From NCBI GenBank assembly GCA_963750595.1, contig CAVVRG010000007.1, forward strand, positions 84,182 through 148,181: a stretch of DNA of 64,000 bases, in the 5' to 3' direction. Under the pieces are notes generated by a model. That model was not told the DNA's origin. It did not search any database and worked only from the letters and a program-made list of their open reading frames with translations. Origin of the DNA: an uncultured Actinomycetes bacterium (GTDB lineage: Bacteria > Actinomycetota > Thermoleophilia > Gaiellales > Gaiellaceae). Each line of letters opens with the position of its first letter. The first letter of the stretch is position 1. Made by a program: the position numbers and the translations under genes. Below, one piece after another: positions 10,528-46,681 of the stretch.

Positions 10528-10892
10528 GGGGGCGACCAGGTCTCGACGTGGTCGGTTCTCCGGCAGAGCTGCGAGCCGAGGTCGCCGGTTGGCCTCGTAA
10601 ATCCACCGGCACCAAAGCAAGTGCGAACAAGAACGAACTCGCACTCGCCGCCTAGCACTAGCTAGGTAAGGCGACGCCGACCCGGATTCGGCCCGAGATC
10701 CGGGAGCCGGCGCCAACGATCGGGCTCGGCGCCGAGGGAGAGCCAATCGCCCGGAGCGCGACTCTTCAGGATGGCTGGCCCGTCGGTTGGTCGTCCGCGA
10801 ACCGGCCGCCGGGCGAGATCAAGCGCGGACTACGCTCGTAGATGCCCTGTTCGGTGCGGCCGCGGACGCGGGTTCGATTCCCGCCGCCTCCA
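10528..10892 (+). ncRNA. ssrA: tmRNA (SsrA), tag ORF 10617-10655 encoding ASANKNELALAA*
   Basis: The 5' GGGGGCG pairs with the 3' CGCCUCC, including the G3.U pair. T-arm is GACGCGGGTTCGATTCCCGC with discriminator A. The tag ends in the typical ALAA followed by TAG. Confidence 0.9.
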
Positions 10893-10995
10893 TGAAATCG
10901 CGATTAGCAGGGAAAACGTTCCGAGACGGGGGGAATGGATTCGGAAGGGTCATTCCCTGTCGTCGTCCGCGGCGAAGGTCTGAAGCTGGGACGAC

Positions 10996-32977: not shown

Positions 32978-33570
32978 CGGTGTGGCCGTGTCGCTCGTAC
33001 CAGGGCGTCGATCGCCGGTCGCTCCTCGTCCTCGACGTCGCGATGGACGCGCTCGGCCTTCTCGATCTCGAGCCCGGGGAGCTCGGCGATGATGTCGTCC
33101 GGCGTGCACAGGACGTCCGGATCGCTCGGGCCGCCCACGCCCTCGGTCAGGTTGAGCAGGTCGTGGCCGACGAGCAGGAACGTCCCACCCGGTGCGACGG
33201 CGCCGGCCGCCTTCTCCAGGACGAGCCTGCGCTCGCGGGCGGGGATGTGGAGGTAGAGGACGAGGACGAGGGCGTGGCCGCGCGCCTCGGGCTCGAAGTC
33301 GACGAGGTCGCCGACGCGGAAGTCGACCTCGACCCCCTCCTCGGCGGCACGAGCTCGCGCCTTCGCGATCGCCACGTCGGAGTAGTCGACGGCGGTCACG
33401 TCCCAGCCGACGCTCGCCAGCCAGATCGCGTTCCGGCCCTCGCCGCAGGCGAGGTCGAGCGCTCGGCCCGGCGCGAGCCCCGCCGCTTCGGCGACGAGGA
33501 AGCGGTTCGGCGCCAGGCCCCAGAGCGAGTGCGCGTGCGCGTAGTGCCGGTTCCAGTCCTCACGCTTCAC
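32974..33570 (-). CDS. class I SAM-dependent methyltransferase
   Basis: Motif I 'ALDLACGEGRNAIWLA', with 'VTAVDYS' after it. Confidence 0.85.
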   Translation of the reverse strand: MKREDWNRHYAHAHSLWGLAPNRFLVAEAAGLAPGRALDLACGEGRNAIWLASVGWDVTAVDYSDVAIAKARARAAEEGVEVDFRVGDLVDFEPEARGHALVLVLYLHIPARERRLVLEKAAGAVAPGGTFLLVGHDLLNLTEGVGGPSDPDVLCTPDDIIAELPGLEIEKAERVHRDVEDEERPAIDALVRATRPHR

Positions 33571-34720
33571 GTGGTCTCACCCCCCGACCGACGACGCGCT
33601 GGCTCGCGAGGAGGGTCAGCGCGCAGAGCCCGGCTCCGAGCAGGTACGGAGCCGCGTCGCCGAACGCCGACGCGAGCGCGCCGCCCGCGATCGGTCCCGT
33701 CATGTTCCCGAGCGCCCACGCGCTGTTCATGATCCCGAAGGCGAGGCCCTGCGCGAGGCCGGCCGTCTCGGCGCGGTGCGAGGTCAGGGCCATGCCCGGC
33801 GCGTAGAAGCCGCCGAAGCTCAACGCCGCGGCGCCGACGAGGAACGCGATGGCCGCGGGTTGCGACGCGAGTGCGAGCAGGCTCGCGACGACGATCGACG
33901 CTCCGAGAGCCGCGCGGATGGGGAGGAGCCGGCCGCGCCGGTCGCTGGCACGCCCGAGAATCGGGCTGATGACTACCTCGAGCAGGCCGGCGGCGAAAAA
34001 GACGGATCCGATCGCGAGGGTGGTCCAGCCGGCGTCGTCGAGGGCGAGCGGCGCCAGGACCGCCAGCGTCCCGAAGAGCAGCGCGGGGAGGGTGTTGAGC
34101 CAGAGCCCTCCGAGGAAGCGGGTGTCTCCGAGGGCGCGCGCGATGCCGCTGCGGGTGAGCGGCTCGCCGACCGACGAGCGGGGGAGGAGCGCGAGCCCGG
34201 CGAAGCCGAGGGCGACGACACCGAGTGTCCCGAACGCGAGCCGGATCCCCACCGCCTCGGCCACGCCGCCGAACATCGGCCCGATGATCGCACCGAACAC
34301 CGCGGCGCCGAAAGCCGTCCCGATTACCTCACCGCGTCTCGAAGCCGGCGCCGTGACGGTGATCCAGGCAAGAGCCCCAGCCCAGGTGGTGGTGCTCGAG
34401 AAGCCCTGGAGGAACCGTGCGATCCCGAGCGTCGCCGCGGTGTCGGCGGCCGCGAACGCGAAGCTCGCGACGCCGAGCAGGACGAGGCCACCCACCACCG
34501 CGGTCCTGGGCCCGAGCCTCGACGCGGCGATCCCGCCCGGGATCCCGCCGAGGAGCGCGCCCGCGCCGAACGCTCCGAGGAGGAGGCCCGCGCCGGTCTT
34601 CGACAGGTCGAACTCGTCCGCGTAATCCGGCACGAGCGGTGTCAGGGCGGTGAAGAGCATCGCGTCTACGAAGATCACCGCGGAGACGAGAACGAGGAGC
34701 CGTCGCACGTCTTCGAGCAT
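33560..34720 (-). CDS. MFS transporter
   Basis: 12 TM-like segments. Start chosen at MLEDVRRLLVLV (34720); the longer track ORF runs into the repeat region. Confidence 0.85.
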   Translation of the reverse strand: MLEDVRRLLVLVSAVIFVDAMLFTALTPLVPDYADEFDLSKTGAGLLLGAFGAGALLGGIPGGIAASRLGPRTAVVGGLVLLGVASFAFAAADTAATLGIARFLQGFSSTTTWAGALAWITVTAPASRRGEVIGTAFGAAVFGAIIGPMFGGVAEAVGIRLAFGTLGVVALGFAGLALLPRSSVGEPLTRSGIARALGDTRFLGGLWLNTLPALLFGTLAVLAPLALDDAGWTTLAIGSVFFAAGLLEVVISPILGRASDRRGRLLPIRAALGASIVVASLLALASQPAAIAFLVGAAALSFGGFYAPGMALTSHRAETAGLAQGLAFGIMNSAWALGNMTGPIAGGALASAFGDAAPYLLGAGLCALTLLASQRVVGRGVRPREA

Positions 34721-34772
34721 ACGCACGCCTGCTCGAACCGAGTCTGTCTCGACGCGCGACTGCGGCGCGACA

Positions 34773-34964
34773 GCGCCCGCGGAGCGGGCGCCTACAGGGA
34801 TCTTCGCGCTCGGTGCTCCGCGAGTGCGGAGCGCCGAGCTGCGGAAGAAAGAGCAAAGAAATGCACCGAGCCGGTGGCGCCTTCGTCCGGCTTTCCGACT
34901 GACCGCCGCCGAAACGGCTGCCGCTCGGAGAACCATCAACCTCGGACGCTCCGTACTCGGTGCA
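34773..34964 (-). ncRNA. structured RNA unit U1 (core 34862-34964 plus hairpins), probably the 5' leader of the MFS mRNA
   Basis: Closed by UGCACCGAG…CUCGGUGCA. Internal GCCGU-UUCG-GCGGC and GUCGG-AAAG-CCGGAC hairpins. Followed by 14-bp and 8-bp hairpins with no U tract before the MFS ATG. Confidence 0.5.
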
Positions 34965-35679: not shown

Positions 35680-38091
35680 ATGCGTGACCGCGCGCGGGCG
35701 GTGGTGATCGGAGGCGGCGTCGGCGGGTGCTCGGTGCTCTACTGGCTGGCGCGACTCGGCTGGGAGGACGTCGTGCTCGTCGAGCGCGCGGAGCTCACGA
35801 GCGGCTCCACGTTCCACTCCGCGGGCCTCGTCGGTCAGCTGCGAAGCTCGCTCTCCCTGACGCGGATGATGATGGCGAGCGTCGACCTCTACCGCTCGCT
35901 GGAAGCGGAGGTCGGGCTCGAGACCGGATGGCGGGAGGTGGGGTCGCTCCGGCTCGCGTCGTCGGAGGAGCGGATGGAGGAGATCGCGCGGCAGGCGGGC
36001 TGGGCGAAGACGTTCGGCCTGCCCCTCGAGCTGATCTCGCCGGCGGAGGCGCAGGGGCTCTTCCCGCCCATGTCGACCGACGGCGTGCTCGGAGCCGCGT
36101 TCCTCCCGACGGACGGCTACGTCGACCCGAGCCAGCTCACGTTCGCCCTGGCCGAGGGGGCGCGTCGCCGCGGGGCCGAGATCGAGCAGCGCACCCGCGT
36201 GACCGGCCTTCGCGTACGGAGCGGTCGCGTCGAGGCGGTCGAGACCGATCGCGGCGAGATCGAGACGGAGACCGTCGTCGACGCGGGGGGGATGTACGCG
36301 CGCGAGATCGGCGACCTCGCGGGAGTGAACGTGCCGATCGTCCCCATGGCGCACGAGTACCTCGTGACGAAGCCGGCCGGGCTCCCGCTGGAGATGCCGA
36401 CGATGCGCGATCCGTCGCTCCTCGTCTACTTCCGCCCCGAGTCCGGCGGCCTCGTCATGGGCGGCTACGAGCGGCAGTGCGCGCCGTGGGGCCTCGAGGG
36501 GATCCCGGCCGACTTCAACGCTCAGCTCCTGGAGGAGGACTGGCCGCGCTTCGAGGAGCTCATGGAGAACGCCCTCGTCCGCGTGCCCTCGCTCGGCGAG
36601 ATGGAGGTCGTCCGGCTGATAAACGGCCCCGAAGCCTTCACGCCCGACGGCGAGTTCATTCTCGGCCCCTCGGACGTACGCGGCTTCTGGGTCGCGGCCG
36701 GCTTCTGCGCCCACGGTCTGGCAGGCGCCGGAGGCCTGGGGAAGCTCGTCGCGGAGTGGATCGTGGAGGGCACGCCGTCGCTCGACGTGTGGCACATGGA
36801 CTCCCGCCGCTTCGGGGCGGCCTACCGGAGCCCGGAGTACACCCTCGCGCGCGCGAAGGAGGTGTACGAGACCTACTACGACGTCACGTACCCGGGCCAC
36901 GAGCGCGTGGCCGGCCGGCCGCTCCGGCTCTCGCCCGCCTACCCGCGGCTCGTCGAGCTCGGAGCCGTTTTCGGCGAGAAGGCGGGCTGGGAGCGCGCGA
37001 ACTGGTTCGAGCCCAACGCCGCTCGCGGGGACGAGGCACTGCGCCCGCGCGGGTGGGCAGGCAAGCACTGGTCGGCCGCGATCGGCGCCGAGCACACGGC
37101 GTGCCGCGAGGCCGCCGCACTGTTCGACGAGTCCTCGTTCGCCAAGATCGAGGTCGCGGGCGAGGGCGCCGCGGGCCTGCTCGAGCGCCTCTGCGCGAAC
37201 CGCGTCGCCCGCGACGTCGGGCAGGTCACCTACACGCAGATGCTCAACCCGCGGGGCGGGATCGAGTGCGACTTCACGGTCACGCGGCTCGCGGACGACC
37301 GCTTCCGGATCGTCACGGGTACCGCGTTCGGCCAGCACGACCTCGCCTGGATCCGGCAGCACGAGCCCGAGGACGGGTCGGCGCGGGTCAGCGACGTCAC
37401 CTCGCAGTACGCCTGCCTGGGGCTCTGGGGCCCGAAGTCGCGCGCGATCCTCCAGCCGCTGACGCCCGAGGACCTGTCCAACCGGTCGTTCCCGTACATG
37501 CGCGCCCGCGAGCTCGCCATCGGGCACGTCCCGTGTCTTGCGCTGCGCGTGACGTACGTCGGCGAGCTCGGCTGGGAGCTCTACTGCCCGACGGAGTACG
37601 GCCTCGCGCTCTGGGACACGCTGTGGGAGGCCGGGCGCCCTCACGATCTGGTGCCCGGCGGCTACAAGGCGATCGACTCGCTGCGGCTGGAGAGGGGCTA
37701 CCGGGTCTGGGGCGCGGACATCACGACCGAGGACACACCACTCGAGGCGGGGCTTGGCTTCGCCGTGAAGCTGGACAAGGGCGCGTTCACGGGGAGGGAG
37801 GCGCTAGCGGGCGCCGGCGAGCCCGAGCGCCTGCTCCGCTGCCTCGTGCTCGACGACCCGGGGGCGGTTGCCCTCGGGTCGGAGCCCGTGCGCGCGAGCG
37901 GGGAGCTCGTCGGGCGCGTGACGAGCGGAGGCTACGGCTACACGGTCGAGCGCTCGATCGCGTACGCGTACCTGCCCGCGGAGCACGACGTCGGGACGGA
38001 GGTCGCGGTGGAGATCTTCGGAGAGTGGGTGGGGGGCGAGGTCGCGGCCGAGCCGCTCTACGACCCGCGCGGCGAGCGGATCCGGGCGTGA
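35680..38091 (+). CDS. dimethylglycine/sarcosine oxidase-dehydrogenase-like FAD enzyme fused to a GcvT (folate-binding aminomethyltransferase) domain
   Basis: 'AVVIGGGVGGCSVLYWLA' dinucleotide fold, DAO domain, and a C-terminal GcvT-like 'GYKAIDSLRLERGY…' segment. TACTGT lies 6 nt before the ATG with no SD, so the gene may be leaderless. Confidence 0.9.
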   Translation: MRDRARAVVIGGGVGGCSVLYWLARLGWEDVVLVERAELTSGSTFHSAGLVGQLRSSLSLTRMMMASVDLYRSLEAEVGLETGWREVGSLRLASSEERMEEIARQAGWAKTFGLPLELISPAEAQGLFPPMSTDGVLGAAFLPTDGYVDPSQLTFALAEGARRRGAEIEQRTRVTGLRVRSGRVEAVETDRGEIETETVVDAGGMYAREIGDLAGVNVPIVPMAHEYLVTKPAGLPLEMPTMRDPSLLVYFRPESGGLVMGGYERQCAPWGLEGIPADFNAQLLEEDWPRFEELMENALVRVPSLGEMEVVRLINGPEAFTPDGEFILGPSDVRGFWVAAGFCAHGLAGAGGLGKLVAEWIVEGTPSLDVWHMDSRRFGAAYRSPEYTLARAKEVYETYYDVTYPGHERVAGRPLRLSPAYPRLVELGAVFGEKAGWERANWFEPNAARGDEALRPRGWAGKHWSAAIGAEHTACREAAALFDESSFAKIEVAGEGAAGLLERLCANRVARDVGQVTYTQMLNPRGGIECDFTVTRLADDRFRIVTGTAFGQHDLAWIRQHEPEDGSARVSDVTSQYACLGLWGPKSRAILQPLTPEDLSNRSFPYMRARELAIGHVPCLALRVTYVGELGWELYCPTEYGLALWDTLWEAGRPHDLVPGGYKAIDSLRLERGYRVWGADITTEDTPLEAGLGFAVKLDKGAFTGREALAGAGEPERLLRCLVLDDPGAVALGSEPVRASGELVGRVTSGGYGYTVERSIAYAYLPAEHDVGTEVAVEIFGEWVGGEVAAEPLYDPRGERIRA

Positions 38092-38966
38092 CCGCGTTGG
38101 CGGACGCCGTCGAGCGCGTCTGGCCCGGTCGCGGCGCGCGGTTCGAGGTTCTCGGGGGCGGGATCACGAACCACAACCTCAAGGTCGAGCTCGACGACGG
38201 GACGTATGTCCTCCGGGTCGCGGGCAAGGACACGGAGCTCCTGGGGATCGACCGCGGCGTGGAGCTCGCGGCCACCCGCGCGGCCGCCTCGCTGGGGATC
38301 GGGCCGGAGGTCGTGCAGTTCGTGGAGCCGGAGGGCTGGCTCGTAACCCCGTTCGTGCGCGGCGAGATCCCCCCTCTCGAGCGGATGCGCGAGCCGGAGA
38401 CACTCGAGCGCGTCGCCCATGCGCTTCGGCTCTTCCACGGCGGCGCACCGATCCCCGGCCGCTTCGACGCGTTCCGCGTCGTGGAGGAGTACCGGGACAC
38501 CGCGCTCTCCCGCGGGGGCGCGATCCCGGGCGACTACGAGTGGGCCCACGAGGTCGCCGAGCGGATCGAGGGACTGCGCGCGGCCGACTCCCCGGTGCCC
38601 TGCCACAACGACCTCCTGAACGCGAACTTCCTCGACGACGGCGTACGGCTCTTCGTCGTGGACTGGGAGTACGCCGGGATGGGCGATCGCTTCTTCGACC
38701 TCGCGAACTTCGCTATCAACCACGAGCTGGACGCGGACGGTCGGCGCCGGCTCCTCGAGTGCTACTTCGGCGAGGCGCGAGCCGAGGACGAGGGAGCGCT
38801 CGAACTCATGCGCTTCATGTCCGACTTCCGCGAGGCGATGTGGGGCGTCGTGCAGTCCACCGTGTCCGAGCTCGACTTCGACTTCGCCGGCTACTCCTCC
38901 GAGCACTTCGCGCGGCTCCGCCGAACCGCCGAGGATCCGGCGTTCGGTCGCGCGCTCGAGGTCTGA
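38088..38966 (+). CDS. choline/ethanolamine-kinase-type (APH-fold) phosphotransferase
   Basis: 'CHNDLLNANFL' catalytic loop and 'VVDWEYAGMGDRFFDLAN'. GTGA overlap with the upstream gene. Confidence 0.8.
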   Translation: MTALADAVERVWPGRGARFEVLGGGITNHNLKVELDDGTYVLRVAGKDTELLGIDRGVELAATRAAASLGIGPEVVQFVEPEGWLVTPFVRGEIPPLERMREPETLERVAHALRLFHGGAPIPGRFDAFRVVEEYRDTALSRGGAIPGDYEWAHEVAERIEGLRAADSPVPCHNDLLNANFLDDGVRLFVVDWEYAGMGDRFFDLANFAINHELDADGRRRLLECYFGEARAEDEGALELMRFMSDFREAMWGVVQSTVSELDFDFAGYSSEHFARLRRTAEDPAFGRALEV

Positions 38967-39018
38967 ACATGCGAGAGGCGCCTCGCGGCGCCTCTCGCGA
39001 ACCGGATCGGCGGCGTGC

Positions 39019-40653
39019 CTACGCGCCCGCCTCGGTCGGCAGCTCGAAGTCGGCGAGCTGCTCCTCCTCCATCCGCTCGAGCTCCTCCTCGGTGCCCATG
39101 CGCACGGGGCCCTTGAACCAGTTCTTGGCCGAGAGGAACCACCAGCCGCCGAACACGAGGCCGATCCCAGCGAACCAGAGGATCGTGTAGTTCGTGAACC
39201 GCCAGTCGAAGCCGTCCTCCCACGGGAGGCCGACCTTGTACAGGGGAATCACGAAGATGATCGTGATCAGGGCGACCCACGCGATGGAGAGCGGGTCGAT
39301 CCACTTGTAGTGCTTGCCGAGGCTCCACGCCCGCGGCTCGTCCCAGCTGTCCCCGAGCCTCCAGCGGAGGTAGACCGGGATGATGAACGCGATGTACAGC
39401 CCGATCACCGCGATCGCCGTCCCGACGGCGTAGCCGACGAAGTAGTTCCACACCGCCGGGATCATCAGCACAGCCGCGAAGAACCAGATGCCGACGACCG
39501 ACCATCTCGGGACGCGGTTCCGTGCGACGCGCCTCCAGAGCTGGTGGCCGGGAACCGCGCGGTCGCGCGAGAAGGCGAACATCATCCGCGAAGCCGACGT
39601 CACCGAGGCGGTGACGCAGAAGAACTGCGCCACGACGCAGATGAACAGCAGGGCCTCTGCCCAGTCCTGGCTCATCGAGTTGGCCCAGATCCAGGGCACG
39701 AGGAGCCCGAGTGCGTTGACGGTTTCGAGTGCGCCCTCGGTGCTCGGGATTGCGAACGTCACTGCGACCAGGAGAATCCAGCCGAAGATCACGGAGACGA
39801 CGACCGAGGTCCACATACCCACCGCCGCGCCGCGCGATGCGTTCTTCGTCTCCTCGGCGGTGTGGGCGGACGCGTCGAAGCCTGTGATCGTGTACTGCGG
39901 AAGCAGCATGCCGAGCCCGAGCACGAGCAGGAACGCGAGGCCGAGCGAGGTCGTCCCGTCCCCGAATCCCGAGTTGTTGATGGTCTGCTTGAACACGTAC
40001 GAGGCGGACTGGTGCTGATCCGGGACGATGATGAGGATCGCGACGATGACGACGACCCCGACCATGTGCCACCACGCCGAGATCATGTTCAGGCCCGACG
40101 TGAGGCGGATGTTGAGGAAGTTGATGAGAGCCGCCGCGGTCAGGAAGATCGCGTACAGGATGTAGGTCGAGGCGTCGAAGGACGCGCCGAACCAGTCGTT
40201 CATGTGCTCCGAGTAGGAGAACCAGAAGTCGAAGAGCGCCTGCCCGAAGAGCGCGAGGCCGTACCCGATCGCGGCGGTGACCGCGACCTGGCCGATGAGG
40301 TTGAACCAGCCGGTCGCCCAGCCCCACCCGGGTCCGCCCATCTTCGAGGCCCAGTAATAGAGGCCGCCTGCGGTCGGATAGGCGGAGGCGATCTCGGCCA
40401 TGGCGAGCGCGATGATCGTCGCCATGAGCCCCACGAGCAGCCAGCCCCACGTGACCCACATCGGGCCGCCGTGCTCGAAGCCGATGTTGTACGAGGTCAG
40501 GCACCCCGCGAGGATCGAGATGATCGTGAAGCTGATCGCGAAGTTGCGGAACCCGCCCATCGCGCGGAAGAGCTCCTGCGCGTAGCCGAGCTTGTGGAGG
40601 ATCTTCTCGTCCTCCGAGGTGTGGTAGCCGCCCCCCTCAGGAGCCGTGCTCAT
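39019..40653 (-). CDS. APC-superfamily amino-acid/amine permease
   Basis: 12+ TM helices, 'AEIASAYPTAGGLYYW', and a GGAGGA RBS before ATG 40653. Confidence 0.85.
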   Translation of the reverse strand: MSTAPEGGGYHTSEDEKILHKLGYAQELFRAMGGFRNFAISFTIISILAGCLTSYNIGFEHGGPMWVTWGWLLVGLMATIIALAMAEIASAYPTAGGLYYWASKMGGPGWGWATGWFNLIGQVAVTAAIGYGLALFGQALFDFWFSYSEHMNDWFGASFDASTYILYAIFLTAAALINFLNIRLTSGLNMISAWWHMVGVVVIVAILIIVPDQHQSASYVFKQTINNSGFGDGTTSLGLAFLLVLGLGMLLPQYTITGFDASAHTAEETKNASRGAAVGMWTSVVVSVIFGWILLVAVTFAIPSTEGALETVNALGLLVPWIWANSMSQDWAEALLFICVVAQFFCVTASVTSASRMMFAFSRDRAVPGHQLWRRVARNRVPRWSVVGIWFFAAVLMIPAVWNYFVGYAVGTAIAVIGLYIAFIIPVYLRWRLGDSWDEPRAWSLGKHYKWIDPLSIAWVALITIIFVIPLYKVGLPWEDGFDWRFTNYTILWFAGIGLVFGGWWFLSAKNWFKGPVRMGTEEELERMEEEQLADFELPTEAGA

Positions 40654-40736
40654 CCCATCCTCCTTGTCGCTGACGGGGTATTCAGCAACGACCGAGGGTG
40701 TCATGTCAAGTCGCGCGGCGCATTAGGATCGCGCGC

Positions 40737-42080
40737 ATGCCGAGCTTCGACGAGCTGAAGGCGCTGATCGGCCGCGGCGAGATCGACACCGTCATCGTCG
40801 CGTTCGCCGACATGCAGGGGCGCCTCCTCGGGAAGCGCCTCCAGGCGGACTTCTTCCTCGAGGAGGTCGAAGCGGGTCACGAGGTCGAGGGCTGCAACTA
40901 CCTGCTCGCGCTCGAGATGGAGATGGACCCGGTGCCGGGCTACGAGATCGCGAGCTGGGAGCAGGGCTACGGCGACTTCGGGATCCAGCCCGACCTCTCG
41001 ACGCTGCGGCTCGTCCCCTGGCTCGAGGCGACCGCGCTCGTCCTCGGCGACGTGCAGTGGCACGACGGCTCGCCGGTCGCCCCGTCACCCAGGCAGGTCC
41101 TGCGGGCGCAGGTCGCGCGGGCGGAGGCGCTCGGCCTCACGCCCATGGTCGGCTCCGAGCTCGAGTTCTTCCTGCTGCGCGAGACGTACGAGGAGGCATG
41201 GGCGCAGGGCTACGAGGATCTCACGCCCTCTGTTCCGTACATCCTGGACTACCACATCCTCGCCTCGACCTACGACGAGCCATTGCTGCGTCAGATCCGC
41301 AACGGGATGCAGGCCGCCGGCATGCGCGTCGAGACCTCGAAGGGCGAGGCGTGGCCAGGACAGCACGAGATCAACTTCCGCTTCACGGACGCCGTGCGCA
41401 TGGCGGACGACCACGTGATCTACAAGAACGGAGCGAAGGAGATCGCGCATCTGAACGGGTGCGCAATCACGTTCATGGCGAAGCCGTTCGAGAGCTGGAT
41501 CGGGAGCTCGTGCCACATCCACGCGAGCCTCTGGCAGGGCGGCCGGAACGGGTTCGCGCGCGGGGAGCGGGAGACACCGCTCTTCCGACGCTTCCTCGCG
41601 GGGCAGATCGCCTGCGCGAAGGAGCTCGCGATCTTCTTCGCCCCGACCATCAACTCGTACAAGCGCTACGCGGCGGGAAGCTGGGCGCCGACGACCCTCG
41701 CGTGGGGGCACGACAACCGGACGTGCGGGTTCCGGATCGTCGGGCACGGACAGTCGCTCCGGGTGGAAACGCGTATCCCCGGCGGGGATGTCAACCCGTA
41801 CCTCGCGTTCGCCGCGATGATCGCCTCCGGCCTGTACGGGATCGAGAACGAGCTCCGCCTCCCGCGGCCGCTCGAGGGGAACGCCTACGAGTCCGGCGCG
41901 GACCGCTTCCCGTCCTCGATGCGCGACGCGATCACCGCGCTCGACGCAAGCACGATGGCCCGGGCTGCGTTCGGCGACCAGGTCGTCGACCACTACCTGA
42001 ACTACGCGCGCACCGAGCAGGCGCTCTACGACAAGACCGTCACGGACTGGGAGCGCAAGCGCTACTTCGAGAGAGGGTAG
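40737..42080 (+). CDS. glutamine-synthetase-family gamma-glutamyl-amine ligase (PuuA/GlnA4-like)
   Basis: 'GSELEFFL', 'KGEAWPGQHEIN', 'MAKPF…GSSCHIHASLW' and 'NSYKR' GS-fold motifs. Confidence 0.85.
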   Translation: MPSFDELKALIGRGEIDTVIVAFADMQGRLLGKRLQADFFLEEVEAGHEVEGCNYLLALEMEMDPVPGYEIASWEQGYGDFGIQPDLSTLRLVPWLEATALVLGDVQWHDGSPVAPSPRQVLRAQVARAEALGLTPMVGSELEFFLLRETYEEAWAQGYEDLTPSVPYILDYHILASTYDEPLLRQIRNGMQAAGMRVETSKGEAWPGQHEINFRFTDAVRMADDHVIYKNGAKEIAHLNGCAITFMAKPFESWIGSSCHIHASLWQGGRNGFARGERETPLFRRFLAGQIACAKELAIFFAPTINSYKRYAAGSWAPTTLAWGHDNRTCGFRIVGHGQSLRVETRIPGGDVNPYLAFAAMIASGLYGIENELRLPRPLEGNAYESGADRFPSSMRDAITALDASTMARAAFGDQVVDHYLNYARTEQALYDKTVTDWERKRYFERG

Positions 42081-42084
42081 ACCT

Positions 42085-42900
42085 GTGCGGGTTGTCCTGA
42101 TCTCGCAGGTCGCACCGGCGGTGCACGGGTACGCGAGCCTCCTGCGGAGCCTCGGGCACGAGCCGGTCGCCCTCCTCTGCACGCGCGAGGGCGCCGATCG
42201 CTACGGGCGGGTGGCCGAGGTGGTCGCGGGCGCGCCCGGCGAGCTCGACGTCGTGATGCCCGCGACCCGGGCGAGGATCGCGCCGCTCCTCGAGTTGTAC
42301 GAGCCGGACCTCGCTCTCTGCGCCGGCTTCCCCTGGAAGATCCCGGCGGACGCCATCGGGGTCCCGAGGCGCGGGATCGTGAACGGGCACCCCTCGCTGC
42401 TGCCGCGCTACCGGGGCCCGAGCCCGGTCTCCTGGGCGATTCGGAACGGCGAGACCGAGATCGGCTTCACGCTCCACTACATGGACGCGGAGCTCGACAC
42501 GGGCGCGATCCTCGCCCAGGCGTCGATCCCTCTCGGTGACGAGCACTCCTGGGAGGAGCTCGAGCCGAAGCTCGTCACGGCGGTCGGGGGGACTCTCCCC
42601 TCGGCGCTCGAGCGGGCGGAGCTCGGGGACCCCGGCGACGAGCAGCAGGGAGAGGGGACGTACTTCTCGTTCTTCGAGCCCGAGTACACCTGGATCGATC
42701 GCTCGAGGACGGTGGACGAGGTCGAGCGCCAGGTGCGCGCCTGGCGCTTCCACTCCCCGACGAGCAGTGACCGCGGGGCGCTGACCGAGCTCGACGGCGA
42801 GCAGGTGCGTGTCCTGCGCGTCAGCCGCGAGCTCGTGGACGGTCCGGCGCTCGAGTGCGCTGACGGCACACTCCGGATCGTGGAGACTGAGCCCGTATGA
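42085..42900 (+). CDS. formyltransferase-family protein (Fmt/PurN-like catalytic core)
   Basis: 'GIVNGHPSLLPRYRGPSPVSWAI' and 'MDAELDTGAIL' (Asn-His-Asp triad), plus a C-terminal Fmt-like domain. Confidence 0.8.
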   Translation: MRVVLISQVAPAVHGYASLLRSLGHEPVALLCTREGADRYGRVAEVVAGAPGELDVVMPATRARIAPLLELYEPDLALCAGFPWKIPADAIGVPRRGIVNGHPSLLPRYRGPSPVSWAIRNGETEIGFTLHYMDAELDTGAILAQASIPLGDEHSWEELEPKLVTAVGGTLPSALERAELGDPGDEQQGEGTYFSFFEPEYTWIDRSRTVDEVERQVRAWRFHSPTSSDRGALTELDGEQVRVLRVSRELVDGPALECADGTLRIVETEPV

Positions 42901-43613
42901 GACCCGTGATCGGGATCACGACCTACGCCCAGGAGGCGAGCTGGGGCGTCTGGCGGCTGCCGGCTGCGCTCATCCCGCTCGCGTACGTCGAGGCGGTGGA
43001 GCAGGCGGGCGGTCGTCCAGTCCTCGTCCCGCCGAGCGAGGAAGGGGTCGAGGAGACGATCCACGCGCTCGACGGGATCGTGTTCTCGGGCGGCGCGGAC
43101 GTCGATCCCGCTCACTACGGCGCCGACGCGCATCCCGAGACCGACTCGCCGCAGGCGCAACGCGACGCGGGCGAGCTCGCACTGTTGCGCTCGGCGCTCG
43201 AGCGCGACCTCCCGGTGCTCGCCGTTTGTCGCGGGTTCCAGCTCCTGAACGTCGCGCGGGGCGGCGACCTCGTCCAGCACCTGCCGGAGGCGGTCGGTCA
43301 CGACGCGCACAAGGAGATCCCCGGCACCTTCTCCCGGCACCCGGTCGACGTGAAGGAGGGCACACGGCTCGCGTCACTGATCGGGGCGCGCTCGGACGTC
43401 GCGTCCCACCACCACCAGGCGCTCGGCCAGGTCGGCGAGGGGCTGGCTGAGACCGCCTGGGCGCAGGACGGCACGCTGGAGGCGGTCGAGGACCCGTCGC
43501 GTCGCTTCGCGGTCGGCGTCCAGTGGCATCCCGAGGCGGGCGAGGACCAGGCGCTCTTCGAGGGGCTGGTGCGCGAGGCGCGGGCGTACCGCGCCGCCAG
43601 AGAGGACGGTTGA
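42897..43613 (+). CDS. gamma-glutamyl-amide hydrolase, class-I glutamine amidotransferase / peptidase C26 (PuuD-like)
   Basis: 'LAVCRGFQLLNV' nucleophile elbow and 'GVQWHPE' His-Glu motif. Confidence 0.85.
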   Translation: MRPVIGITTYAQEASWGVWRLPAALIPLAYVEAVEQAGGRPVLVPPSEEGVEETIHALDGIVFSGGADVDPAHYGADAHPETDSPQAQRDAGELALLRSALERDLPVLAVCRGFQLLNVARGGDLVQHLPEAVGHDAHKEIPGTFSRHPVDVKEGTRLASLIGARSDVASHHHQALGQVGEGLAETAWAQDGTLEAVEDPSRRFAVGVQWHPEAGEDQALFEGLVREARAYRAAREDG

Positions 43614-43650
43614 CCGCATCGGCGCGAGCCGGTCGGCGGAAAGGAGACGC

Positions 43651-43842
43651 ATGTACTGGGGGCTGGGGATCATCTACGTGGTTCTGTCGATCGTCTTCGT
43701 CGCGGACGTGCTGCGCAACCGGGCGCTGTCCGGAGGCGGGAAGGCGCTGTGGATCGTCGGGCTGCTCGTCGTGCCCGTCTTCGCGTGGGTCGTCTACGCG
43801 ATCTTCCGGATGCGCCAGAACCGAGGGCTGTACGGCGCGTGA
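43651..43842 (+). CDS. small membrane protein, PLD-nuclease N-terminal (PLDc_N) type
   Basis: Two TM helices with 'VFVADVL…KALWIVGLLVVPV'. Its stop overlaps the ALDH GTG start. Confidence 0.6.
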   Translation: MYWGLGIIYVVLSIVFVADVLRNRALSGGGKALWIVGLLVVPVFAWVVYAIFRMRQNRGLYGA

Positions 43843-45191
43843 CGTTGACGGTCCTCAACCCGGCGACCGAGGAGCCGATCGCCGAGCTGGAGCAGGCGGG
43901 CGTCGAGGAGACGGACGCGGCGGTCGCCCGTGCCAGGGACGCGCTTCCCGCCTGGCGCGCGGTCGCGCCGGCCGACCGCGCGCGCCTGCTCCGCCGGCTG
44001 GCAACGCTGGTGGAGGAGAACGCGGAAGACCTCGCGCGCATCGAGTCGCGCAACGTCGGCAAGCCGATCTCGGGCGCGCGCGGCGAGGTCGGCATGGTCG
44101 CCCAGGTCTTCCACTTCTACGCGGGTGCGGTGGACAAGCACTACGGGGACACGATCCCGGTGGCCGGTGGCGTGGCCGCGACGTTCCGCGAGCCGCTCGG
44201 CGTCGTCGGTCTCATCGTCCCGTGGAACTTCCCGCTCAACATCGCGAGCTGGAAGATCGGCCCCGCTCTCGCCTGCGGGAACACGGTCGTCCTGAAGCCC
44301 GCCGAGCTAACGCCGCTCTCCGCTCTGCGCCTCGCCGAGCTCGCCCTCGAGGCAGGCATCCCCGAGGGGGTCCTGAACGTCCTCGTGGGGAAGGGCTCCG
44401 TGGTCGGGCAGCGCCTCGTCGAGCACCCGGACGTGGCCAAGATCGGCTTCACCGGCTCGACCGAGGTCGGCCGGCTCGTGATGCAGGGCGCGGCCGGCAC
44501 GATCAAGCGCGTCACGCTCGAGCTCGGCGGGAAGTCCGCCAACGTCGTCTTCGAGGATGCCGACCTGGAGCGCGCGGCCGCCATGGCGCCCTATGCCGTG
44601 TTCGACAACGCCGGACAGGACTGCTGCGCTCGCTCGCGCATCCTCGTGGAACGCTCGGTCTACGACCGCTTCCTGGAGCTCCTCGTGGAGTCGACCGGGA
44701 CGCTCGTCGTGGGCGACCCGGAGGACGAGGCCACGGAGATGGGCCCGCTCGTCTCGGCGGCGCACCGAGAGCTCGTCGCGTCCTTCGTCGAGGGCGAGCC
44801 ACGCTTTCGTGGCCCGGTCCCCGACGGCCCCGGATTCTGGTACCCGTGCACCCTCGTGGAGGCGGCGAACGAGGATCGGATCGCGCGCGAGGAGGTCTTC
44901 GGGCCTGTTGCCGCCGTCATCCCCTTCGAGGGCGAGGCGGAGGCGATCCGGATCGCCAACGACACCCCCTACGGTCTCTCCGGCTCGATCTGGACGCGCG
45001 ACGGCGCGCGCGCCCTGCGGGTCGCGCGTGCGCTCGAGACGGGCGTGCTGTCCGTGAACTCGAACTCGTCCGTGCGGGTGCAGACGCCGTTCGGGGGCTT
45101 CAAGCAGTCGGGGTTCGGCCGCGAGCTCGGGATGCAGGCGCTCGACGGCTACTCCGAGGTCAAGAGCGTCTTCGTCTCGACGGAGGTCTAG
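43839..45191 (+). CDS. NAD(P)-dependent aldehyde dehydrogenase
   Basis: 'ELGGKSANVV' and 'GQDCCARSR' catalytic Glu/Cys motifs. Confidence 0.9.
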   Translation: MTLTVLNPATEEPIAELEQAGVEETDAAVARARDALPAWRAVAPADRARLLRRLATLVEENAEDLARIESRNVGKPISGARGEVGMVAQVFHFYAGAVDKHYGDTIPVAGGVAATFREPLGVVGLIVPWNFPLNIASWKIGPALACGNTVVLKPAELTPLSALRLAELALEAGIPEGVLNVLVGKGSVVGQRLVEHPDVAKIGFTGSTEVGRLVMQGAAGTIKRVTLELGGKSANVVFEDADLERAAAMAPYAVFDNAGQDCCARSRILVERSVYDRFLELLVESTGTLVVGDPEDEATEMGPLVSAAHRELVASFVEGEPRFRGPVPDGPGFWYPCTLVEAANEDRIAREEVFGPVAAVIPFEGEAEAIRIANDTPYGLSGSIWTRDGARALRVARALETGVLSVNSNSSVRVQTPFGGFKQSGFGRELGMQALDGYSEVKSVFVSTEV

Positions 45192-45193
45192 GC

Positions 45194-45973
45194 ATGGGCA
45201 GGCTCGACGGGAAGGTGTGCGTCATCACCGGCGCCGGAGGCGGGATGGGGCGCGAAGCGGCGATCGTCTTCGCGGCCGAGGGAGCGAGCGTCTGCGTCGC
45301 CGACGTCGAGGCCGAGCTCGCGCAGGAGACCGTCGGGCTGTGCTCCGGCGAGGCGCTCGCGCAGCGCGTGAACGTGGCCGACGAGCAGGACGTCGAGCGC
45401 CTGTACGCCGCGACTGCAGAGCGCTTCGGCGGGGTCGACGTCCTCTACAACAACGCCGGGATCTCGCCGGCCGACGACGCCTCGGTGCTCGACACGTCGG
45501 AGGAGGCGTGGCAGCGCGTCCAGGACGTGAACGCAAAGGGTGTCTTCCTCTGCTGCAAGCACGGCATCCCCTACCTCCTGGGGCGCGGCGGCGGCTCCGT
45601 GATCAACGTCGCGTCCTTCGTCGCCATCCTCGGCGCGGCGACGTCGCAGATCTCGTACACGGCGTCGAAGGGCGCCGTCCTCGCGATGAGCAGGGAGCTC
45701 GGCGTCCAGTTCGCGCGGCAGGGAGTTCGGGTGAACGCGCTCTGCCCGGGGCCGGTGGAGACGCCGCTCCTGCTCGCGATCTACGGGGACGATCCGGCTG
45801 CGTTCGCGCGGCGCCAGGTGCACTGGCCCACGGGACGGCTGGGGAAGCCGCGCGAGATCGTCGACGCCGCGCTCTTCCTCGCCAGCGACGAGTCGTCGTT
45901 CGTGAACGGTGCGACGTTCGTCGTGGACGGCGGGCTCACCGCCGCTTACGTGACCCCCGAGCAGTCGAGGTGA
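45194..45973 (+). CDS. SDR-family oxidoreductase
   Basis: 'ITGAGGGMG', 'NNAG' and 'YTASK' motifs. Confidence 0.9.
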   Translation: MGRLDGKVCVITGAGGGMGREAAIVFAAEGASVCVADVEAELAQETVGLCSGEALAQRVNVADEQDVERLYAATAERFGGVDVLYNNAGISPADDASVLDTSEEAWQRVQDVNAKGVFLCCKHGIPYLLGRGGGSVINVASFVAILGAATSQISYTASKGAVLAMSRELGVQFARQGVRVNALCPGPVETPLLLAIYGDDPAAFARRQVHWPTGRLGKPREIVDAALFLASDESSFVNGATFVVDGGLTAAYVTPEQSR

Positions 45974-46087: not shown

Positions 46088-46540
46088 CTACACCCCCACG
46101 ACCTGAACGGTCCAGCGCCGATCGCGCTCGCGGTCGAGCTCCATGAAGAGGATGCGCTGCCACTGGCCGAGCTGGAGCTCTCCGCCGCGGACCGGGATGG
46201 ACTCGCCGGCGGGGCCGAGGAGCATCGACATGCAGTGCGCGTGGCCGTTGCCCACATCCATGTCCTCCTCGCAGACGTTCTCCGTCCGGCGGTCCCAGTC
46301 GTCGTGCGCGTAGTAGTGCTCGGACGGGACGAGGCGCTTGAGCAGCACCGCGAAGTCCTCGAGGAACCCCCGCTCCCACTCGTTCACGCGGACCTGACAG
46401 GTCGTGTGCGGCGAGTAGATGCAGCAGATGCCGTCGCTGATCCCGCTCTGGCTCACTGCATCCTGGACCTCGTCCGTGATGTCGGTGACGGTCAGCCCGC
46501 CCGCCGTTCGCAGGTGCGCCTCGTACTGGTACGTCTTCAC
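46088..46540 (-). CDS. YjbQ/UPF0047-family (secondary thiamine-phosphate synthase-like) protein
   Basis: 'HTTCQVRVNE…' and 'NGHAHCMSMLLGPAGESIPV…LQLGQWQRILFMELD' are family hallmarks. Confidence 0.85.
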   Translation of the reverse strand: MKTYQYEAHLRTAGGLTVTDITDEVQDAVSQSGISDGICCIYSPHTTCQVRVNEWERGFLEDFAVLLKRLVPSEHYYAHDDWDRRTENVCEEDMDVGNGHAHCMSMLLGPAGESIPVRGGELQLGQWQRILFMELDRERDRRWTVQVVGV

Positions 46541-46607: not shown

Positions 46608-46681
46608 GGGCCCGTAGCTCAGCTGGTCAGAGCAGCCGACTCATAATCGGTTGGTCCCTGGTTCGAGTCCAGGCGGGCCCA
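46608..46681 (+). tRNA. tRNA with CAU anticodon (elongator Met or lysidine-modified Ile2; overall closer to the Ile2 type); CCA not encoded
   Basis: Cloverleaf: GGGCCCG/CGGGCCC acceptor, GCTC/GAGC D stem, GCCGA-CTCATAA-TCGGT anticodon arm, CCTGG-TTCGAGT-CCAGG T arm. Confidence 0.9.

Follow-up and report, generated by a model that had tools for sequence, protein, structure and literature searches.

Ethanolamine is degraded in Streptomyces coelicolor through gamma-glutamylated intermediates, with an ethanolamine gamma-glutamylase, a gamma-glutamylethanolamide dehydrogenase, a gamma-glutamyl-aldehyde dehydrogenase and a gamma-glutamylglycine amidohydrolase assigned to the SCO1610-1615 genes (PMC6529630). 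The same pathway was described for the MED193_10026-10056 genes of Phaeobacter, in a report that also cites the operons of Chromohalobacter salexigens and Agrobacterium tumefaciens (PMC10132767). We analyzed a gene cluster of this type in a 64,000-nucleotide stretch of DNA (hereafter, the window; positions 84182-148181 of contig C7) from an uncultured Actinomycetes bacterium of the family Gaiellaceae. The cluster encodes an APC-family permease, a ligase related to glutamine synthetase (GS), a Peptidase C26-family gamma-glutamyl hydrolase (C26), an aldehyde dehydrogenase (ALDH) and a short-chain dehydrogenase/reductase (SDR). A formyltransferase-family gene (FT) is inserted between the ligase and C26 genes, and a small-molecule kinase gene coupled to a dimethylglycine (DMG)-oxidase-like gene lies next to the cluster. 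We propose, with a joint probability of roughly 0.6, that this region, flanked by an MFS transporter gene and yjbQ, is a mosaic whose modules are inherited separately, in which the core is the known GlnA4-type ethanolamine pathway, FT is an optional accessory, and the kinase/demethylase pair is a separate module.

The identity of the ligase is central to the assignment of the core. On the GlnA model, for which the cut-off is 429, the ligase reaches 229-233 bits; it falls below all NCBIfam GS cut-offs, and a true GlnA (619 bits) is encoded elsewhere in the same genome. Therefore, the ligase is not a standard glutamine synthetase; the opposite outcome would, according to the initial annotation, have refuted its proposal. 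The best PDB matches of the ligase are 11zs (452 bits) and 5dm3 (412 bits), the latter a C. salexigens target of the Enzyme Function Initiative (EFI), whereas true GS structures reach at most 187 bits; the comparison was made with 11zs and 5dm3, so that the relation to S. coelicolor GlnA4 is an indirect one. The EFI work of Vetting and colleagues reportedly established ethanolamine as a substrate of the operon that encodes the 5dm3 protein. On the models of the Puu pathway, both proteins stay below the cut-offs, the ligase with 209 bits for gamma-glutamylputrescine synthetase (cut-off 650) and the hydrolase with 101 bits for PuuD (cut-off 266).

Exactly one ligase orthologue, with 50-63% identity, was identified in 50 of the 200 sampled Actinomycetota genomes (G128 and G160 contribute one ligase match each). 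The unpublished genomes G128, G160 and G451 enter the counts of this study, and none of the conclusions rests on them. By comparing 29 orthologous loci outside the genus of the window genome, we found the ligase gene followed by C26 and then ALDH in 13 of them, and directly by ALDH in the others. Several of these loci (for example, L134 and L136) possess the same divergent permease gene, the SDR gene is also located 3' of the ALDH gene in G085 and G192, and G192 displays the full order of permease and ligase-C26-ALDH-SDR. The window ALDH is 57-73% identical to the ALDH encoded behind C26 or the ligase in other Actinomycetota. The gene order of G192 is presumably present in Mycobacterium tuberculosis as well (glnA4-Rv2859c-aldC-Rv2857c), although a search by the Rv numbers found nothing. 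The hydrolase has a full-length C26 domain: its match to PF07722 spans positions 1-219 of 219, the residues C111, H211 and E213 of the Cys-His-Glu triad do not vary among 25 orthologues, and its PDB matches are PuuD, 7d4r from Pseudomonas aeruginosa, and Lin1909. The operon context of a GlnA4-type synthetase, with a hydrolase, an ALDH, a dehydrogenase and a permease, is found both in the window and in the orthologous loci. Domain content, the relatives of the ligase and the orthologous loci thus all support the gamma-glutamylation pathway of the GlnA4 type that had been recognized from the sequence.

From homology, we infer all five steps of the core pathway. The APC permease would import the amine, and the GS-like ligase would use ATP and glutamate to form gamma-glutamylethanolamide. 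The SDR would then turn the alcohol into an aldehyde, the ALDH would oxidize the aldehyde to the acid, gamma-glutamylglycine, and the C26 hydrolase would release glycine and glutamate. The earlier statement that no such route had been described does not hold for this core, which is already known (PMC6529630, PMC10132767), and stands for the added genes only; the FT insertion is a genus-specific variant of the pathway.

The presence of FT in the operon was flagged as atypical in the initial annotation, and this is confirmed by the comparison: the slot between the ligase and C26 is empty in all 29 orthologous loci compared from other Actinomycetota, which have neither FT nor any other gene there. 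Our first sample of loci within the genus was found through FT and was therefore biased. The subsequent census queried the genus in full (108 genomes) for C26, FT and the ligase one by one, so that its loci were not ascertained through FT. C26 is the most frequent of the three (92 genomes), followed by the ligase (73) and FT (60). Of the 28 genomes with a completeness of 90% or more, 12 possess all three genes, five (including G451) have the ligase and C26 without FT, five have FT and C26, five have C26 alone, and one has none. C26 is thus present in 27 of these 28 genomes, even where every partner gene is missing, and the ligase and FT are inherited independently of each other in the genus. 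The co-conservation of FT with the gamma-glutamyl genes, which had been proposed as a check on the initial annotation, therefore largely breaks down.

The genomes that lack FT have a ligase-C26 spacing of 35-121 nt and an otherwise complete block, and in a quick tree of the ligase they are nested among FT-bearing genomes. The ancestor of the genus therefore probably possessed FT, with two or three losses thereafter. Conversely, at least four lineages retain only FT-C26 or FT-C26-SDR, one of them with a relic of the ligase 3' end, and both genes of the FT-C26-only loci have ratios of nonsynonymous to synonymous substitution rates (dN/dS) of 0.15-0.18. As FT is lost from complete operons and kept under purifying selection without the ligase, it is best regarded as an optional accessory and not as a step of the pathway. 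The purifying selection suggests that FT, where present, does something useful, although this is probably not a required gamma-glutamyl step.

Gene relics are frequent in this region. Among the loci that retain only C26, those of G475 and G471 preserve a piece of the FT 3' end and that of G488 a piece of the oxidase 5' end, and remnants of ALDH and SDR genes are present as well; in some genomes the deletions cut FT short and spared C26. Across the genus, the locus between the MFS gene and yjbQ appears as a deletion hotspot, with at least four to six independent deletions that left gene relics, all of which spared C26. These many independent events indicate that the region is being eroded. In G004 (L140:8952-9710), the slot between the ligase and C26 is an 803-nt gap that contains an open reading frame (ORF) of 252 aa on the opposite strand without a Pfam or NCBIfam match. 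Three further loci (L017, L026 and L027, of G005, G001 and G017, respectively) have split or truncated matches in the ligase, FT, C26, ALDH or oxidase genes, which may reflect assembly frameshifts or early pseudogenization.

The kinase and the DMG-oxidase-like protein form the second module. The oxidase has the full DAO + FAO_M + GcvT + GcvT_C architecture, and its PDB matches are the rat and human DMG dehydrogenases (DMGDH; 555-561 bits) and the DMG oxidase (DMGO) of Arthrobacter globiformis (505-510 bits). The nearest structure to the kinase is 3dxq. Kinase homologues were identified in 17 of the 200 Actinomycetota genomes, and 13 of the 20 kinase genes found have an oxidase homologue directly beside them, in at least seven of the sampled families (G128 contributes one such adjacency). 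The translational coupling of the two genes, noted in the initial annotation, is borne out by a GTGA overlap. In our sample, the pair is divergently adjacent to the ligase cluster only in the genus of the window and in G085, which belongs to another family of the same class, and it stands apart from the ligase cluster in seven other families. In G132, the permease, kinase and oxidase genes are on one strand, on a contig different from that of the G132 ligase. We conclude that the pair is probably an independent, conserved and uncharacterized module that is only loosely linked to ethanolamine catabolism. The pair may turn N-methylated amino-alcohols into substrates of the core pathway, and it is plausible that N-methylated ethanolamines are fed into the core in this way.

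The kinase reaches 322 bits on the model of the guanitoxin kinase GntI (NF041256), which has a cut-off of 357, and no other guanitoxin genes were seen in the window. GntI appears to be an offshoot of the family of this kinase, which is widespread and pairs with DMGDH-like enzymes. Two loci, L183 (G184) and L188 (G210), contain two kinase-oxidase pairs back to back, which are 45-65% and 35-47% identical to the window genes. The unequal identities of the two pairs suggest a duplicated module with diverged specificity.

FT has the features of the N10-formyl-tetrahydrofolate (THF)-dependent formyltransferase superfamily, namely the Asn-His-Asp triad, the SLLP motif and the Formyl_trans_N fold. The triad N100/H102/D138 is invariant in 29 family members that are 32-73% identical to the window protein, and the motif SLLPRYRG corresponds to SLLPxxRG of the superfamily. 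In Foldseek comparisons, the AlphaFold2 model (predicted local distance difference test score 93.7) matches Fmt, the ArnA formyltransferase domain and the hydrolase domain of 10-formyl-THF dehydrogenase with template-modelling scores of ~0.8, at only 21-29% sequence identity. FT scores under every NCBIfam cut-off, and its dN/dS is 0.12-0.22 in close pairs. It is predicted to be a catalytically intact N10-formyl-THF enzyme.

Two known families were rejected for FT. It is not Fmt, as it scores 96 bits on TIGR00460 (cut-off 201.5), has no basic C-terminal domain and coexists with a better Fmt candidate on contig C6 (C6:290867-291574, 191 bits, just below the cut-off, in an open frame of 449 aa). 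In addition, FT is acidic (pI 4.8, with two lysines; pI 4.4 for the C-terminal part), which makes tRNA binding unlikely. It is not a member of the PurU family either, with 32 bits on TIGR00655 (cut-off 286) and without an ACT domain, which leaves room for a PurU-like activity outside that family.

The relatives of FT point to its origin. With a profile of the FT family, we found members among 400 Actinomycetota only in the window genome and in one more genome of its family, the rest being Fmt-level matches. The relatives at ~50% identity, from other Gaiellaceae and from Solirubrobacterales, form an overlapping pair with a YdfG-like SDR in otherwise unrelated surroundings (FtsH-like, M48 protease, cation efflux and convergent MFS_3 genes); the contexts of distant relatives are short and informative only for this recurring SDR-FT pair. 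The FT family is thus a narrow one within the Thermoleophilia, with an unrelated SDR as its usual companion. The window genome keeps an orthologue of the partner SDR (70% identity), which is followed by a GDE-like gene with no FT beside it, and the operon FT is the sole member of its family in this genome. Therefore, FT was apparently relocated into the ethanolamine operon. The move probably occurred in the ancestor of the Gaiellaceae genus, leaving the usual SDR partner behind, and FT would now be co-expressed with the operon via translational coupling. We also considered a shared ancestry of the window MFS gene and the MFS_3 gene beside the sister-clade FTs, which was rejected because the two are unrelated. 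A literature search linking formyltransferases to GS-like gamma-glutamyl clusters yielded nothing relevant.

Our best guess for the function of FT is the N-formylation of a small amine or amino acid. We lean slightly to a small-molecule N-formyltransferase because of the transferase relatives of FT and its location in an operon for amine use. In one relative, the domain follows the adenylation and carrier domains of a nonribosomal peptide synthetase in a fusion protein, which indicates that at least some family members formylate amino groups. A formyl-THF hydrolase of the PurU type is almost as probable. A more specific proposal, that FT is a functional stand-in for PurU that converts 10-formyl-THF to formate and THF and regenerates the cofactor when glycine cleavage and N-demethylation overload the one-carbon pool, appears doubtful to us. 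FT does resemble the hydrolase domain of 10-formyl-THF dehydrogenase in fold and triad, searches for PurU gave no match above the cut-off in the window genome and in four of the five congeners covered, and the cluster yields glycine and adjoins a folate-dependent demethylase. PurU genes lie beside demethylating oxidases in known clusters such as the sox operons and mabO of the nicotine plasmid, and a housekeeping role would account for the persistence of FT without the ligase. However, the distributions of PurU and FT are not complementary, as the FT-less genomes G004 and G012 also lack PurU and only G009 has it, in split form; the usual partner of the FT family is an SDR and not a folate enzyme, and the peptide synthetase fusion points to transfer rather than hydrolysis. 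It is very unlikely that FT and C26 form a two-gene unit acting on a gamma-glutamyl or N-formyl compound unrelated to ethanolamine. Wherever the coordinates of both coding sequences were extracted (24 genus loci), FT and C26 overlap by ATGA, the reduced FT-C26 loci arose repeatedly with both genes under purifying selection, and FT was never found without C26 in the census. This last observation is nevertheless the chance expectation given the near-universal C26, which also persists alone, and in two of the C26-only genomes the deletion cut through FT and left its 3' end alone. An indivisible FT-C26 pair was rejected on account of these C26-only loci and cut FT relics, and a prediction of the FT-C26 complex gave a score of 0.00, which is no evidence either way.

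The initial annotation implies one new route, made up of all these genes from the ligase and FT to the hydrolase, ALDH, SDR, kinase and demethylase, for a methylated amino-alcohol that would need both N-demethylation and N-formyl handling. The genes are indeed contiguous and tightly coupled, synteny of the entire block extends through most of the genus, and the kinase/oxidase pair adjoins the ligase cluster in a second family. This single route is nonetheless unsupported and, in our estimate, highly improbable, since the modules are inherited independently: FT is absent from complete operons and from every locus outside the genus, it is kept in some loci from which the ligase, ALDH and SDR genes are gone, the kinase, oxidase and permease genes are lost from L050 and L054 while the remaining operon stays, and the kinase/oxidase pair is free-standing elsewhere. 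Two narrower novelties were also considered, which we judge together to be rather unlikely. In one, FT may provide these Gaiellaceae with an undescribed formyl branch of amine metabolism, in which, for example, the amine or amino acid set free by C26, or else an amino-aldehyde, is protected by N-formylation instead of gamma-glutamylation. In the other, the kinase/demethylase pair and the GlnA4 operon may make up a complete, uncharacterized route from choline-derived N-methylethanolamines to glycine. Several points weigh against the mosaic reading that we prefer. FT is tightly coupled to both neighbours in every contiguous FT-bearing locus except that of G468, where ~820 nt separate FT and C26 (L179:4620-5440), and such coupling fits a role in the pathway as well. 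The ligase tree behind the repeated FT loss is a quick one with several weak forks. Most of the genomes are metagenome-assembled genomes (MAGs), in which some absences may be assembly gaps, although the relics and the direct ligase-C26 junctions argue otherwise. Ethanolamine as the probable substrate rests on orthology to GlnA4/5dm3-type ligases, and both the transferase and the hydrolase role of FT are hypothetical.

The source genome (2.94 Mb, ~71% G+C, 91% complete) has as its nearest relatives soil MAGs labelled Gaiellaceae, Thermoleophilia or 'uncultured Actinomycetes'. Every gene named in the initial annotation was recovered with Pfam and NCBIfam, with a few starts shifted and one 63-aa gene added (Table 1).

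Table 1. Genes of the ethanolamine-type locus and the adjoining kinase/oxidase pair, with window coordinates
Feature	Coordinates	Strand	Support
DMG-oxidase/dehydrogenase-like FAD enzyme fused to a folate-binding GcvT domain, 803 aa, putative folate-dependent N-demethylase	35680-38091	+	Pfam DAO, FAO_M, GCV_T, GCV_T_C
Choline/ethanolamine-kinase-family small-molecule kinase	38088-38966	+	Pfam Choline_kinase, APH
APC-family amino acid/amine permease	39019-40653 or 39019-40704	-	Pfam AA_permease_2
GlnA4-type GS-like ligase, putative gamma-glutamylethanolamide synthetase	40737-42080	+	Pfam Gln-synt_C, E 2e-100
Formyltransferase-family protein (FT), Fmt/ArnA fold, 271 aa	42085-42900	+	Pfam Formyl_trans_N
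Peptidase C26 gamma-glutamyl hydrolase, putative gamma-glutamylglycine amidohydrolase	42897-43613	+	Pfam Peptidase_C26, E 3e-67
63-aa two-helix membrane protein, PLDc_N family	43651-43842	+	Pfam PF13396, 29.9 bits
NAD(P)-dependent ALDH, putative gamma-glutamyl-aminoacetaldehyde dehydrogenase	43839-45191	+	Pfam Aldedh, E 3e-167
Classical SDR, putative gamma-glutamylethanolamide dehydrogenase	45194-45973	+	NCBIfam PRK06057, 356 bits

The junctions were read in the sequence. The start of FT is located 4 nt past the ligase stop, and the likely start of the permease is at 40653, with an AAGGAGG site ahead of it. The true ALDH start lies ~90 nt downstream of the start of the longest ORF, and the SDR start at 45194 has its own ribosome-binding site. 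The small PLDc_N gene between C26 and ALDH, which had been overlooked, is preceded by a strong ribosome-binding site, GGAAAGGAG, and is coupled to ALDH by GTGA. It is kept in 40 loci of the genus, including FT-less and reduced ones, and was not seen in the ethanolamine loci of other Actinomycetota, the flanks of which are short.

The locus is bounded by the MFS gene (33560-34939) and yjbQ (46088-46540). A tRNA gene (46608-46681) is located just past yjbQ, at the edge of the variable locus, and a tmRNA gene (140 bits) was found at 10528-10895 of the window. The region upstream of the oxidase gene matches no Rfam family at the gathering score. Short exact-match Logan contigs were found in two rhizosphere RNA libraries and cover the kinase, the permease/ligase promoter region, FT (42549-42730), the junction of C26 and the small ORF (43500-43682) and ALDH; the libraries derive from complex communities with possible DNA carry-over, and none of the contigs spans the operon.

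The core operon can be annotated with some confidence as a pathway of ethanolamine catabolism in the Gaiellaceae, a soil lineage that is abundant and has hardly been cultured. As FT illustrates, a gene that looks integrated in its operon can be exposed as an optional add-on by a census of a single genus; FT also defines a small uncharacterized formyltransferase family of Thermoleophilia. The pair of a kinase and a folate-dependent demethylase, which recurs across Actinomycetota, is a better target for new amine chemistry.

Compared with the GlnA4 pathways of Streptomyces, Chromohalobacter and Phaeobacter, the window locus has the same GS-like ligase, dehydrogenase, ALDH, amidohydrolase and dedicated importer. 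However, its importer is an APC permease and not a TRAP system, its hydrolase belongs to the C26 family whereas that of S. coelicolor belongs to the formylglutamate-amidohydrolase family, and its operon contains the inserted FT and PLDc_N genes and adjoins the kinase/demethylase pair. With the Puu pathway of Escherichia coli (PuuA, PuuD, PuuC) it shares the gamma-glutamyl protection, the oxidation of the far end and the final hydrolysis, as well as the match of C26 to PuuD, but an SDR takes the place of the PuuB oxidase and the putative substrate is an amino-alcohol rather than a diamine. The window oxidase resembles A. globiformis DMGO and mammalian DMGDH in its FAD and GcvT architecture over the whole length, whereas the pairing with a choline-kinase-family kinase is a feature of the window enzyme and not of DMGO or DMGDH. 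Finally, FT has the two-domain fold, the SLLPxxRG motif and the Asn-His-Asp triad of Fmt, the ArnA N-terminal domain and the hydrolase domain of 10-formyl-THF dehydrogenase, and differs from them in its low sequence identity, its acidic character and its catabolic genomic setting.

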